Shown here one piece after another: positions 5,907-30,783 of a stretch of DNA of 64,000 nucleotides. Source of the DNA: Escherichia coli (GTDB taxonomy: Bacteria > Pseudomonadota > Gammaproteobacteria > Enterobacterales > Enterobacteriaceae); the NCBI RefSeq assembly GCF_003991155.1, contig NZ_CP031293.1; one strand, 5' to 3'. The position numbers and the translations under genes are program-made. A model generated the notes under the pieces. It saw only the letters and a program-made list of their open reading frames with translations, did no database searches and was not told the DNA's origin. Numbering within the stretch: position 1 is the stretch's first letter; each line of letters opens with the position of its first letter.

Positions 5907-6245
5907 TTACTTCGCAGCCTGTGGATCAGTGTCGTATTCAGCACAGGTCTGATAACCGGAGTTGATGACATGTCCGGTATCATCTAACGCGACAAAGTAG
6001 GTTTCTGCTTTACCATCACGTTGACCCAGGATGTAGGTCTGGCAAGTACCACGAGCATGGATCATGCTCACTTCAGACGAAGGTTTACCCGCAATTTGTG
6101 CAACCTGCGCCCGGCTCATGCCTTTTTTGACGTCTTTCACCACAGGCTGTACAAACTGGTCTTTGGTACGATCATAAGCCGTACAACCCGCCAGCATGGT
6201 TAATACCGCCGCTGCACTCAGAATTCCTGCCATATTCTTGTTCAT
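5907..6245 (-). CDS. osmE: osmotically inducible lipoprotein OsmE
   Basis: 112-aa ORF with signal peptide and lipobox (LAGC). Confidence 0.9.
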
Positions 6246-24771: not shown

Positions 24772-25398
24772 TTACTGACGCTGGAGCGACTTCAGCGTCA
24801 GATACCCACTCCACACCCGCGTAAAGGTCGTCATCCAGCACAACGCACCAAATACCCACGCAAACCACGGAAAACAGGCCGGAAAGAGGCAACTCAGAAC
24901 AAACAGCAAAATCGTCTCGCTGCCTTCGGTTAACCCGCCCAGATAATAAAACGATTTATGCGCATAACCAGGATTATCAATCTGATGTTTCGCCGCCAGC
25001 GCAGCAAAAGCGAGAAAACTGCTGCCCGTGCCGATAAACGCAAACAGCAGCCAGCCGCCTGCCAGCGCATTTTGCTCCGGTGCAGCAAGAATAAAACCAA
25101 ACGGCACCAGCGCGTAAAAGAGAAAATCGAGAGAAATATCGAGAAAGCCGCCCGCGTCGGTAAGCCCTCTGCGCCGCGCCAGCGCACCGTCCAGACCATC
25201 AAGCAGCCTGTTCAACAAAATGGCGACTAGCGCCGCCAGATACCAGCCCAGCGCCAGAAAAGGCAGTGCCAGCACGCCGATGGCAAATCCCACTAATGTT
25301 AAACCATCTGGCGTAATGCCCGGTTTATCAAGAACCCGCACGCACTGATGCAACAACGGTTTAATCCGGGGATGAAGATGGCGGTCTAGCACAGGCAC
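24772..25398 (-). CDS. ynjF: CDP-alcohol phosphatidyltransferase family membrane protein
   Basis: DG-x2-AR-x8-G-x3-D-x3-D-like motif (LDGLDGALARRRGLTDAGG); exact start uncertain (ATG 25398 or GTG 25392). Confidence 0.8.
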   Translation of the reverse strand: MPVLDRHLHPRIKPLLHQCVRVLDKPGITPDGLTLVGFAIGVLALPFLALGWYLAALVAILLNRLLDGLDGALARRRGLTDAGGFLDISLDFLFYALVPFGFILAAPEQNALAGGWLLFAFIGTGSSFLAFAALAAKHQIDNPGYAHKSFYYLGGLTEGSETILLFVLSCLFPACFPWFAWVFGALCWMTTFTRVWSGYLTLKSLQRQ

Positions 25399-26359: not shown

Positions 26360-27703
26360 ATGGATCAGACATATTCTCTGGAGTCATTCCTCAACCATGT
26401 CCAAAAGCGCGACCCGAATCAAACCGAGTTCGCGCAAGCCGTTCGTGAAGTAATGACCACACTCTGGCCTTTTCTTGAACAAAATCCAAAATATCGCCAG
26501 ATGTCATTACTGGAGCGTCTGGTTGAACCGGAGCGCGTGATCCAGTTTCGCGTGGTATGGGTTGATGATCGCAACCAGGTACAGGTCAACCGTGCATGGC
26601 GTGTGCAGTTCAGCTCTGCCATCGGCCCGTACAAAGGCGGTATGCGCTTCCATCCGTCAGTTAACCTTTCCATTCTCAAATTCCTCGGCTTCGAACAAAC
26701 CTTCAAAAATGCCCTGACTACTCTGCCGATGGGCGGTGGTAAAGGCGGCAGCGATTTCGATCCGAAAGGAAAAAGCGAAGGTGAAGTGATGCGTTTTTGC
26801 CAGGCGCTGATGACTGAACTGTATCGCCACCTGGGCGCGGATACCGACGTTCCGGCAGGTGATATCGGGGTTGGTGGTCGTGAAGTCGGCTTTATGGCGG
26901 GGATGATGAAAAAGCTCTCCAACAATACCGCCTGCGTCTTCACCGGTAAGGGCCTTTCATTTGGCGGCAGTCTTATTCGCCCGGAAGCTACCGGCTACGG
27001 TCTGGTTTATTTCACAGAAGCAATGCTAAAACGCCACGGTATGGGTTTTGAAGGAATGCGCGTTTCCGTTTCTGGCTCCGGCAACGTCGCCCAGTACGCT
27101 ATCGAAAAAGCGATGGAATTTGGTGCTCGTGTGATCACTGCGTCAGACTCCAGTGGCACTGTAGTTGATGAAAGCGGATTCACGAAAGAGAAACTGGCGC
27201 GTCTTATCGAAATCAAAGCCAGCCGCGATGGTCGAGTGGCAGATTACGCCAAAGAATTTGGTCTGGTCTATCTCGAAGGCCAACAGCCGTGGTCTGTACC
27301 GGTTGATATCGCCCTGCCTTGCGCCACCCAGAACGAACTGGATGTTGACGCCGCGCATCAGCTTATCGCCAATGGCGTTAAAGCCGTCGCCGAAGGGGCA
27401 AATATGCCGACCACCATCGAAGCGACTGAACTGTTCCAGCAGGCAGGCGTACTGTTTGCACCGGGTAAAGCGGCTAATGCTGGCGGTGTAGCAACATCGG
27501 GCCTGGAAATGGCGCAAAACGCTGCGCGCCTGGGCTGGAAAGCCGAGAAAGTTGACGCACGTTTGCATCACATCATGCTGGATATCCACCATGCCTGTGT
27601 TGAGCATGGTGGTGAAGGTGAGCAAACCAACTACGTACAGGGCGCGAATATTGCCGGTTTTGTGAAGGTTGCCGATGCGATGTTAAGCCAGGGCGTGATT
27701 TAA
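26360..27703 (+). CDS. gdhA: NADP-specific glutamate dehydrogenase
   Basis: 447-aa ORF; GGGKGG active-site region, Glu/Leu/Phe/Val dehydrogenase family. Confidence 0.95.
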   Translation: MDQTYSLESFLNHVQKRDPNQTEFAQAVREVMTTLWPFLEQNPKYRQMSLLERLVEPERVIQFRVVWVDDRNQVQVNRAWRVQFSSAIGPYKGGMRFHPSVNLSILKFLGFEQTFKNALTTLPMGGGKGGSDFDPKGKSEGEVMRFCQALMTELYRHLGADTDVPAGDIGVGGREVGFMAGMMKKLSNNTACVFTGKGLSFGGSLIRPEATGYGLVYFTEAMLKRHGMGFEGMRVSVSGSGNVAQYAIEKAMEFGARVITASDSSGTVVDESGFTKEKLARLIEIKASRDGRVADYAKEFGLVYLEGQQPWSVPVDIALPCATQNELDVDAAHQLIANGVKAVAEGANMPTTIEATELFQQAGVLFAPGKAANAGGVATSGLEMAQNAARLGWKAEKVDARLHHIMLDIHHACVEHGGEGEQTNYVQGANIAGFVKVADAMLSQGVI

Positions 27704-27710
27704 GACAATT

Positions 27711-27744
27711 GTGCCGGATACAGCGCAAACGCCTTATCCGGCCA
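27711..27744. repeat. REP-like palindrome downstream of gdhA (GTGCCGGATACAGCGCAAACGCCTTATCCGGCCA)
   Basis: Inverted GCCGGAT...ATCCGGC arms as in REP elements. Confidence 0.55.
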
Positions 27745-27779
27745 TAAAAATCTTCAGTATCAGATGGTTGAAAGAACCT

Positions 27780-29735
27780 TTATATTATCACTCCATTGCC
27801 CGCCTCTTCTGATGGCGGGCTTTTTTTCGGCGCTCTCTTGCGTGTCGAATCCTTTTTCTTCCCTTCTCCACCGCCGGGAACCATTATTCCCCGAAACTGC
27901 CTTACCGACGTGCGCTTTGCCTGATCAATCAACTGGTACAATGTCCCCACCAGCGGCTGCATAAAGTCCTGATAGCGACACTGCTTTTCGCTGATTTGCG
28001 TCAGCACCGATTCCCAGTGCGCGGTCATGTCCGGTCGCGTCGCCATCTCTGGCAGCGAATGGAATAGCGCTTTTCCGGCGTCGGTGGAGTGGATATAGCG
28101 CCCTTTTTTGGTCAGGAAACCACGCTTGAACAACAGTTCAATAATCCCGGCACGGGTTGCTTCTGTCCCCAGACCATCGGTCGCACGAAGGATCTTTTTC
28201 AGATCTTTGTCCTGCACAAAGCGTGCGATCCCGGTCATCGCCGAAAGCAGTGTTGCATCGGTAAAATGGCGCGGCGGCTGGGTTTGCCGCTCTACCACTT
28301 CACCTTTTTCGCACAACAATTCATCGCCTTTCGCCACCACAGGCAGCGGCGTGCCGTCGTTTTCTTCATCGCGTTCTTTGCTGCCTAACAGCGTGCGCCA
28401 GCCTGCTTCAGCAAGAAAACGGGCTTTAGCGACAAATTTGCCTTTGGCAATGTCCAGTTCGATAACACACTTGCGGAACACCGCATCCGGGCAGAACTGC
28501 ATCAAGTACTGACGGGCAATCAGGTTATAGACCTTCGCTTCGTTCTCCGTCAGGTTGATCGCAGAACTCCGTGCGGTCGGAATGATGGCGTGGTGCGCAT
28601 CGACCTTTTTGTCATCCCAACAGCGGTTGCGTATATCTGGATCTACCACTGGCTGCGGCAACAGATCCGGTGCATGAACGCTGATGGCATTCATCACTGC
28701 GTGGCGTCCGGCAAAATGTTCTTCTGGCAAATAGCGGCAATCGGAACGCGGATAAGTGATTAGCTTGTGCGTTTCGTACAGCTTCTGGCAGATATCAAGC
28801 ACGTTCTGCGCGCTCAGACCAAAACGTTTAGCCGCTTCAATCTGCAACGCCGAAAGCGAAAAAGGAAGCGGCGCGGATTCTGATTCCCGTTTATCGTTAT
28901 AGCTGGTGACAATAGCTGGTTGACCACTAATGCGGTTAACCACATGCTCCGCCAGTGGACGATGTAACAAGCGCCCTTCTTCATCCTGGTACGGTTCACA
29001 CGCTTCGCTCGGTTGCCAGATAGCGGTAAACCGCTCATCGGCAGGTGTCACGATATGTGCTTTGACTTCAAAGAAATCTTTCGCCACGAAGTTTTCAATC
29101 TCTTCGTCGCGGCGCACCACCAGTCCGAGTACGGGCGTCTGCACGCGTCCCACGGAAAGTACGCCCTGATAACCGGCATTGCGACCGAGAATGGTGTAAG
29201 CGCGGGTCATATTGATGCCGTACAGCCAGTCAGCTCGGGCTCGCGCCAGTGCAGAAACGCACAGCGGTACAAACTCGCTATTGGAGCGAAGACGATCGAT
29301 CGCCCGCTCAACCGCCTGCGGGTTCAGGTCGTTTATCAAACAACGCTGTACCTGCTGGCGCTTTTCCGGTGCCAGTTGCAGGTAGTCCAGCACTTCATCC
29401 ACCAGCAGTTGCCCTTCGCGATCCGGGTCTCCGGCGTGAACGATTTCGCTGGCTTCATGCAGGAAGCGTTTGATGACATTAAGTTGTTTAGTCACGGAGG
29501 GTCGGGGCTGTAATTGCCACTTTTCCGGGACAATTGGCAAATCCGCAAGATTCCAGCGCGCATAGCGGCTGTCGTAGGCGTCTGGCTGCGCCTGCTCAAG
29601 CAGGTGACCGATACACCAGGTCACCACCTGACCATTACCGCACTCGATAAAGCCATCGCCTTTCCGGTGCGGTTTAGGCAGGACATCAGCAATGGCGCGC
29701 GCCAGACTCGGTTTTTCGGCAATAAACAACCGCAT
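27780..29735 (-). CDS. topB: DNA topoisomerase III
   Basis: Start at [23 protein letters not shown]...; Lys-rich C-terminal tail; 651 aa by my count. Confidence 0.9.
27798..27827 (+). terminator. intrinsic terminator-like hairpin GCCCGCC-TCTTCTGAT-GGCGGGC plus T7 run, positioned as gdhA terminator and lying inside the last codons of topB on the other strand
   Basis: 7-bp GC-rich stem followed directly by TTTTTTT. Confidence 0.6.
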
Positions 29736-29739
29736 TGAA

Positions 29740-30783
29740 TTAACGGATCTCAACCATGGCACGACCGCCGCGCGCTGGCACCAGTTCGCCAATCGCCGTC
29801 AGTTCAATGCCAAACTCGGCGGCTGTAGCTTTGACCTCATTTTCTGCTTCCGGCATGACCGCCAGCAGCAAACCGCCAGAAGTTTGCGGATCGCACAGCA
29901 GATCGCGCACTTCACGCGGCATTTCACCCATCAGATGACCGTAGCTGGCAAAGTTACGTTCGGTGCCGCCAGGCACTGCGCCCAACTTAATGTACTCTTC
30001 AACCCCAGGCAATTTCGGGATCGCGTCATAGTCGACGCGCGCCTGCACACCTGCGCCCTGACACATTTCGCTTAAATGCCCCAGCAAACCAAAACCCGTA
30101 ACGTCGGTCATCGCTTTTACGCCTTCGATGTTGGCAAAGGACGCGCCTGCGATGTTCATCCGGCACATCACTTCCGTCGCCAGTCCCTGATGTTCTGGTT
30201 TAAGCAGTGATTTTTTCTCAGCCGTGGTAAGAACGCCAATCCCCAGCGGCTTCGTCAGGAACAGTTTGCATCCGGCTTGTGCGGTACTGTTTTTCTTCAC
30301 CCGCTCGGTCGGTACGATCCCCGTTACCGCCAGACCAAAAATCGGCTCCGGCGCATCGATGGAGTGACCGCCAGCCAGCGCAATACCCGCCTGACGGCAT
30401 GCATAGCGTCCACCTTCGGTCACTTCGCGGGCAATTTCCGGGGAAAGTTTGTTAATCGGCCAGCCGAGGATCGCAATCGCCATAATTGGTTTGCCGCCCA
30501 TTGCGAAGATATCGCTGATGGCGTTAGTCGCCGCAATGCGGCCAAAATCGAAAGGATTATCAACGATCGGCATAAAGAAGTCGGTGGTACTGATAACGCT
30601 GGTGCCATTGCCCAGATCGTATACCGCCGCATCGTCGCGGGTTTCATTACCCACAAGCAAATTCGGATCAACAAACTTCGCCTGCTCACTGTGCAGGATG
30701 GTTTCCAACACTTTTGGGGAAATTTTACAGCCGCAACCAGCGCCGTGGCTGTATTGGGTCAAACGAATCGAGTTCTCGCTCAT
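29740..30783 (-). CDS. selD: selenide, water dikinase (selenophosphate synthetase)
   Basis: Start at [21 protein letters not shown]..., 347 aa; 4-bp gap to topB start. Confidence 0.95.

Follow-up and report, generated by a model that had tools for sequence, protein, structure and literature searches.

The 76-bp spacer that separates gdhA from topB in the Escherichia coli genome studied here is very probably the unoccupied, ancestral state of a site between two convergent core genes, where alternative cargo haplotypes would have been moved by recombination in the flanks. No ynjI gene is found at this position in the window, i.e., in the whole 64,000-nt stretch of DNA that was analyzed. Elsewhere in E. 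coli this position is taken up by foreign, AT-rich cargo. The K-12 type, seen in ~65% of genomes, carries a cassette of ~1.28 kb that consists of ynjI, encoding an inner-membrane DUF1266 protein, with its own promoter and an upstream terminator, and the type seen in ~6.5% of genomes carries a 4-4.7-kb island with genes for an Hsp70 and a J-domain/Sel1 protein. Homologous recombination within the core genes on either side may have carried the alternative states from one lineage to another. The strain would have needed no deletion of ynjI; its haplotype either never received the gene or was regained by recombination.

The anatomy of the site is given in Table 1. The first-pass annotation placed the gdhA stop at 27703 and the topB stop at 27780 with 76 bp between them, and the sequence and the ORF list agree with these coordinates. 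The GdhA protein is identical to WP_000373044.1 as annotated in strain 2016C-3878 and is 99% identical to K-12 GdhA; TopB has 651 aa when counted from the MRLFIAEK start at 29735. As also described in that annotation, the spacer contains one repetitive extragenic palindrome (REP) and nothing else: a blastn search at word size 7 against the K-12 insert reveals no ynjI-derived sequence in the spacer, and the ORF list of the window has no DUF1266/YnjI reading frame at the gdhA-topB site. A 1.1-kb query over the junction has a 100% match in E. coli 2016C-3878, where RefSeq annotates the identical gdhA-topB adjacency. The literature search found no mention of strain 2016C-3878.

Table 1. Features at the gdhA-topB site. 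Positions are those of the window, except for L-numbered positions, which refer to other loci.
Feature	Position	Strand	Basis or remark
gdhA, NADP-specific glutamate dehydrogenase, 447 aa	26360-27703	+	ORF list; stop TAA 27701-27703
gdhA-topB spacer, 76 bp, genes convergent	27704-27779	unstranded	unoccupied state of variable site
REP (palindromic unit), imperfect 30-nt palindrome; REP-like flanks ~27711-27745	27713-27742	unstranded	hairpin fold, copy number
topB, DNA topoisomerase III, 651 aa	27780-29735	-	ORF list; stop 27780-27782
TopB tail codons, last 42 residues, lysine-rich divergent allele	27780-27908	-	comparison with K-12
Terminator-like element, gdhA sense, antisense in topB codons	27798-27827	+	dG -17.5 kcal/mol
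Second, weaker terminator-like hairpin and T-rich tract, inside topB tail codons	27826-27859	+	consensus scan; dG -11.3
Cargo loci of other genera	L048:8929-12971; L053:5762-11428; L060:8965-12536; L070:8935-12767; L032:8935-15935; L047:8893-15893		

In K-12 MG1655 the gene order is gdhA (b1761), ynjI (b1762) and topB (b1763), with ynjI on the same strand as topB and 1,284 bp between the stop codons of gdhA and topB. The presence of ynjI at this position in K-12, as stated in the first-pass annotation, is thus borne out, and alignment to K-12 does show a different spacing. K-12 and the window share the flanking genes, their convergent orientation and a REP immediately 3′ of gdhA. They differ in that K-12 has an insert with a stem loop terminator next to topB, ynjI together with its promoter region, and a two-REP unit at gdhA; in addition, K-12 has another allele of the TopB tail (TopB of 653 aa), and the hairpin in its tail codons is degraded (-7.8 kcal/mol, as opposed to -17.5 kcal/mol in the window). 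The terminator of the K-12 cassette, a strong stem loop followed by T8, lies immediately past topB (L001:4925-4963, - strand) and is conserved in Escherichia sp. MOD1-EC7003 and in Pseudocitrobacter faecalis. With this element K-12 topB has a canonical terminator, while topB of the empty type has only the REP.

The K-12 YnjI protein has 346 aa and matches PF06889 (DUF1266) over residues 167-338 (E = 2.9e-25) and NF008480 with 671 bits against a cutoff of 386. The YnjI family (NCBIfam PRK11380) is tiny, with 8 clusters among 5.8 billion proteins, and all ynjI homologues whose context was readable lie between topB and gdhA. The GC content of ynjI is 41%, compared with 53-55% in gdhA, topB and selD. 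Its promoter is activated by BglJ-RcsB, and its expression is increased in an hns stpA mutant (PMC3950696); apart from this regulation paper, a literature search on ynjI variation returned nothing relevant. A search for ynjI on phages or plasmids gave two spurious records only, one a 1.9-kb unannotated fragment and the other an evident chromosome of 4.8 Mb. The low GC content, the link of expression to H-NS/StpA, the small size of the family and the absence from phages and plasmids together mark ynjI as acquired.

The site was surveyed in 5,426 complete E. coli genomes. An uninterrupted gdhA-topB junction is present in 1,515 of them (~28%), and in all 11 of the full-coverage matches that were sampled the span in the record equals the length of the query. 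ynjI is present in 3,506 (~65%), with the same count at megablast and at blastn-distant sensitivity (~65-70% identity) and a median of one place per genome, and the island that encodes the Hsp70 and J-domain/Sel1 proteins (Hsp70-J island) is found in 355 (~6.5%). The sum of the empty, ynjI and Hsp70-J classes is 5,376 of 5,425, which is consistent with mutually exclusive states and leaves ~50 genomes outside these three classes. Insertion sequences occur at the site in two of the sampled genomes, IS1397 in ETEC4071 and IS1 in JNEC-KY203. In the latter (L093:2748-3593) the IS1 adjoins a 117-bp stub of the 5′ end of ynjI, and because this stub is retained the genome is counted among the 3,506 with ynjI.

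Two named strains were compared, UTI89 and CFT073, both reference strains of phylogroup B2. In UTI89 (NC_007946.1) gdhA and topB are annotated as adjacent, the spacer is identical to that of the window at 76 of 76 positions, and the 651-aa TopB is identical at 647 of 652 translated positions, the stop included. UTI89 and the 1,514 other genomes of the adjacent type have the same arrangement as the window, with no material difference. CFT073, on the other hand, has the Hsp70-J island, so that the state of the site differs between the two strains. Genomes with the empty arrangement have thus been public for many years.

The difference from K-12 was earlier suspected to be a genuine one of gene presence and absence, and the occurrence of the junction in 1,515 finished genomes and of ynjI in 3,506 of 5,426 establishes it as such. 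Alternative contents are found between the same core genes, and the cargo is compositionally distinct. The state of the gdhA-topB site is common strain-to-strain variation in accessory genes and is already on record. E. coli is reported by Touchon et al. (2009) to have hotspots, or regions of genome plasticity, flanked by core genes. The gdhA-topB site resembles such hotspots in that core genes flank alternative, compositionally foreign cargo within one species. It differs from them in being very small, with one to three cargo genes, and in that its E. coli states are without integrase, tRNA or direct repeats.

To assess which state is ancestral, one genome per bacterial species was scanned with the TopB of the window as a query, and 80 loci were returned. 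In most of these gdhA directly follows topB, with spacers of ~0 to ~190 bp. Taxa of the adjacent type include Salmonella enterica, ~12 Citrobacter species, Enterobacter, Kosakonia and Pseudocitrobacter, and within Escherichia, E. albertii, Escherichia sp. E1V33 and E. coli SCPM-O-B-8794. Only one of the 80 species loci, that of Escherichia sp. MOD1-EC7003, has ynjI (YnjI 91% identical in aa sequence). In a multiple alignment the spacer of the window, including the REP, can be aligned with the spacers of E. albertii, E1V33 and SCPM-O-B-8794; K-12 and MOD1-EC7003 leave this alignment immediately past the topB stop codon. Orthologous spacers free of ynjI, adjacency in the outgroups and the lack of a remnant indicate that the empty state is ancestral for both the family and the genus. 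Seen in this comparison, the empty spacer appears as the original state and ynjI as an addition. The absence of ynjI described in the first-pass annotation is confirmed; it should not be taken for a loss, since outgroups and spacer alignment make ynjI the newcomer.

Presence/absence polymorphism of ynjI is found in two genera, with the same left boundary. A contig from a Hadza gut metagenome is 99% identical to P. faecalis DSM 27453 in selD, topB and gdhA. It carries ynjI (80% aa identity to K-12) between gdhA and topB, whereas the P. faecalis type strain is empty, and the two haplotypes (L091:5874-7142 and L023:8959-9110) are identical until three bases past the topB stop. The copies in Pseudocitrobacter and in another Escherichia species have ~80% DNA identity, a level similar to core-gene divergence, and this indicates that the insertion is old.

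The age of ynjI at the site also bears on the alternative of a secondary loss, whereby an ancestor of the strain had ynjI and lost it by precise deletion or, more plausibly, by replacement from a donor of the empty type. The gene in MOD1-EC7003 (91% aa), in P. faecalis (80% aa) and as E. coli alleles at 68% aa identity is consistent with such a history, as are the sharp edges of the divergent tract around the indel, which recombinational replacement would give, and the different site states even of UTI89 and CFT073. Nevertheless, we consider a loss unlikely, although it deserves more weight than the other alternatives to ancestry. There is no ynjI remnant, no IS scar and no junction that cuts into the neighboring genes; a real secondary loss, for contrast, is seen in JNEC-KY203 with its IS1 and stub. 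The spacer is orthologous to those of Escherichia species free of ynjI, and it is implausible that a precise deletion would restore such a spacer with its REP. An empty allele may have replaced the segment, yet the present sequence would still be the ancestral haplotype. The data fit equally a strain with a haplotype that may never have received ynjI and one that may have regained the empty haplotype by recombination; in both cases the window carries the ancestral haplotype.

That ynjI has been relocated to a part of the genome outside of the 64-kb window is very improbable: in the 3,506 genomes that have it the median is one place each, the sum of the three classes leaves little room for relocated copies, the gene is not found on plasmids or phages, and every context examined is between topB and gdhA. 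A collapsed or mis-joined contig that dropped ynjI is hardly credible, as the junction is present in 1,515 independently finished genomes, matches UTI89 base for base and has the same gene order in many genera.

TopB of the window is 97% identical to that of K-12. Residues 1-609 are identical, and all 18 substitutions together with a two-residue gap are within the last 42 residues. The lengths given earlier, 651 aa in the window and 653 aa in K-12, are both correct. However, the proposal that the difference stems from an altered 3′ junction does not hold: the two tails can be aligned to the last residue, and the difference is a two-codon indel in a Gly-rich stretch (GGGEG in place of GSGGSAD). 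The ynjI cassette begins after the topB stop codon and for this reason has no effect on the length of TopB. A comparison of TopB C-termini between strains with and without ynjI, proposed at the same time, shows no junction effect of ynjI; in Hsp70-J haplotypes the tail is replaced (648 aa).

At the DNA level, identity to K-12 is 61-62% in the 100-column windows starting at 27780 and 27830, 81% at 27874-27973, and 94-100% in most windows deeper in the gene. Slightly raised divergence (95% identity) is also seen over the final ~200 bp of gdhA. We infer that recombinational spread of site states would explain this ~0.5-kb zone, comprising the gdhA end and the TopB tail codons, which is much more diverged from K-12 than its surroundings. 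An old indel polymorphism to which divergence is linked, and which may have been moved by recombination in the flanks, would be expected to give such a pattern. The window type of tail is also found in E. coli SCPM-O-B-8794 and E. albertii and, more loosely, in Salmonella. E1V33 has a recombinant tail, the first part of which is K-12-like and the last 40 nt window-like. Tail allele classes of TopB travel with the state of the neighboring site.

Other observations concern the flanking genes. In ynjF (24789-25088) and selD (29974-30123), short patches are 87-91% identical to K-12 while the rest of these genes is 95-100% identical; the patches are probably recombination mosaics. In topB of E. albertii NBRC 107761 an in-frame TAG occurs 27 codons ahead of the usual stop (L008 ~6151-6153). 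It is an apparent truncation that would remove the lysine-rich tail, and past the TAG the sequence keeps both homology and reading frame. K-12 topB is 91% identical over its last ~77 nt, and the K-12 spacer 88% identical, to a Pseudocitrobacter MAG. Import of the K-12 topB tail and two-REP spacer from Pseudocitrobacter is suggestive only, because the tracts are short and REPs recur throughout the genome.

In some E. coli genomes ynjI itself is present as an allele whose protein has 68% identity to that of K-12 (L088:6001-7032; also L087, L089 and L090). Divergence extends from ~110 nt into the gene to its stop, and the flanks and both spacers keep 97-100% identity to K-12. Such a pattern resembles that of allelic replacement, or of diversifying selection acting on the membrane and DUF1266 parts of the protein.

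The palindrome in the spacer is GCCGGATACAGCGCAAACGCCTTATCCGGC (27713-27742), which is predicted to fold into a hairpin and is situated 10 nt from the gdhA stop and 37 nt from the topB stop. REPs are imperfect, GC-rich palindromes of ~30-35 nt with the consensus GCCGGAT...CGCCTTATCCGGCC. The spacer sequence is a consensus-type palindrome, extragenic between convergent genes, multicopy, and a target of IS1397 in its orthologous form; the flanking GTAGG/CCTAC motif is degenerate and reads ATGG/CCAT. A 45-nt query over the palindrome is found in at least 40 places per genome in 5,424 E. coli records, and the palindrome therefore belongs to the REP repeat family. It is the only copy of this REP subtype within the 64-kb window. 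An Rfam scan of the spacer gave sub-threshold matches only, including one to the REP-derived naRNA4.

REPs, or palindromic units, downstream of K-12 gdhA are reported to have been described by Becerril et al. (1985, Gene 37:53), and deletion of the REP reportedly lowers the stability of K-12 gdhA mRNA (Merino et al. 1987, Gene 58:305). In both the window and K-12 the 3′ end of gdhA is followed at once by an extragenic REP hairpin. By analogy, the REP of the spacer probably protects the gdhA 3′ end and may stabilize the mRNA. It should be noted that K-12 has two REPs at gdhA, whereas the window has one, somewhat degenerate, and that the copies are not orthologous. Those of K-12 are at the end of the ynjI cassette that faces gdhA, and are similar to spacer sequences of Pseudocitrobacter and Citrobacter sp. 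NCU1.

In ETEC4071 (L003:4568-6000) the loop of the orthologous REP contains an IS1397 element and shows a duplication of 4 bp, GCAA, that corresponds to 27727-27730 of the window. Insertion of IS1397 is specific for REPs (PMC1525189), and ETEC4071 is a clean natural example of this specificity.

A candidate terminator of gdhA is found within the topB codons. It consists of the stem GCCCGCC (27798-27804), a 9-nt loop, the complementary stem GGCGGGC (27814-27820) and T7 (27821-27827). The hairpin is on the + strand ~95 nt past the gdhA stop, and with its 7-bp all-GC stem (dG -17.5 kcal/mol) has the form of an intrinsic terminator; the consensus scan missed it only because the loop limit of the scan is 8 nt. 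The structure was compared with 21 loci from other taxa with neighboring gdhA and topB. In 16 of these all 7 bp of the stem can form, with C-to-T changes that retain G-U pairing. By contrast, the stem is degraded in the three Escherichia ynjI haplotypes, with 3, 6 and 4 of the 7 pairs and -4.5 to -8.3 kcal/mol, and the Hsp70-J haplotype has a weak hairpin (-7.0 kcal/mol). Exceptions are the P. faecalis haplotype with ynjI, which retains the hairpin, and three empty loci with longer, multi-REP spacers, in which it is degraded.

We infer, with somewhat better than even confidence, that the hairpin serves as the gdhA terminator in strains of the empty type and decays once cargo separates it from gdhA. 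Both arms of the stem encode a conserved peptide, however, so that constraint at the protein level could explain part of the stem conservation. The correlation between terminator and site state rests on few independent events with peptide conservation as a confounder, and should be taken as suggestive. To our knowledge, the published maps of E. coli 3′ ends were made with K-12 derivatives, i.e., with ynjI carriers.

Different cargos are present at the site in other genomes. The third E. coli state encodes a protein of 647 aa with a J domain and Sel1 repeats, and an Hsp70 of 566 aa that is HscC-like (43% identity to HscC), as seen in strain 23AR0151 (L004:6560-10200) and in CFT073 (L094:22614-27124). 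The GC content of the island is 42-45%, compared with 53-55% in gdhA, topB and selD. The CFT073 island has a third gene that encodes a 266-aa orphan with a signal peptide and no Pfam match. This orphan and the J protein were examined for DUF1266, to see whether ynjI could be what is left of such an island. The J protein consists of a J domain and Sel1 repeats, and the orphan shows only a 49-residue similarity to YnjI at chance level; this origin of ynjI was rejected.

The protein families of both cargos are also found together at a different chromosomal location, in the K-12 cluster ybeQ-ybeR-djlB-ybeT-ybeU-djlC-hscC (L086:3571-11394), which encodes DUF1266 (YbeR, YbeU), J-domain (DjlB, DjlC), Sel1 (YbeQ, YbeT) and Hsp70 (HscC) proteins. 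YnjI has no BLASTP match to YbeR or YbeU at E <= 0.01, and the literature search found no paper naming DUF1266 together with Hsp70. From the gene neighborhood alone, DUF1266 proteins may be functionally linked to specialized Hsp70s. An annotation of the cargos as anti-phage defense is unsupported: PADLOC has no match for YnjI and gives weak partial matches only, none convincing, for the two proteins of the Hsp70-J island. YnjI is a site-locked DUF1266 membrane protein with alleles that are 32% diverged within the species, and on a speculative reading the cargos would be conflict or stress modules rather than housekeeping genes.

In other genera the contents between topB and gdhA are more varied. 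Enterobacteriaceae bacterium RIT691 has an AT-rich segment (38% GC) with Hcp and unknown genes, a Pluralibacter MAG has a MurNAc PTS/PBP4B operon, and Entomohabitans has a TRAP transporter. Superficieibacter and Klebsiella spallanzanii have a talarate/galactarate dehydratase operon (with MFS and LysR genes), which in K. spallanzanii is followed by an Hsp70-J pair, and K. michiganensis has a tyrosine recombinase (integrase). Across these taxa the gdhA-topB site, set between convergent core genes, is a generally permissive one.

A broader proposal joins the two lines of observation: the last ~15 codons of topB may double as an antisense gdhA terminator, and the cargos may be conflict or stress modules. 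We consider this proposal improbable. If the codons are dual-purpose, occupancy of the site would decide the RNA-level constraint on the TopB tail, and this would explain why the divergence of the TopB protein is confined to the tail and tracks the state of the cargo.

ynjI is an accessory gene of unknown function, its absence is the default state of the locus, and this absence has little wider biological weight. The embedded terminator, the three-state site, the hypervariable ynjI alleles and the overlap in families with the ybeQ-hscC cluster are modestly interesting as leads and are not findings. K-12 is not a neutral reference at this locus, because its insertion is missing from about a third of E. 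coli. The formation of gdhA 3′ ends probably differs between cargo-bearing and empty strains, and since TopB tail alleles are linked to the content of the neighboring site, studies of the tail should state the allele used.
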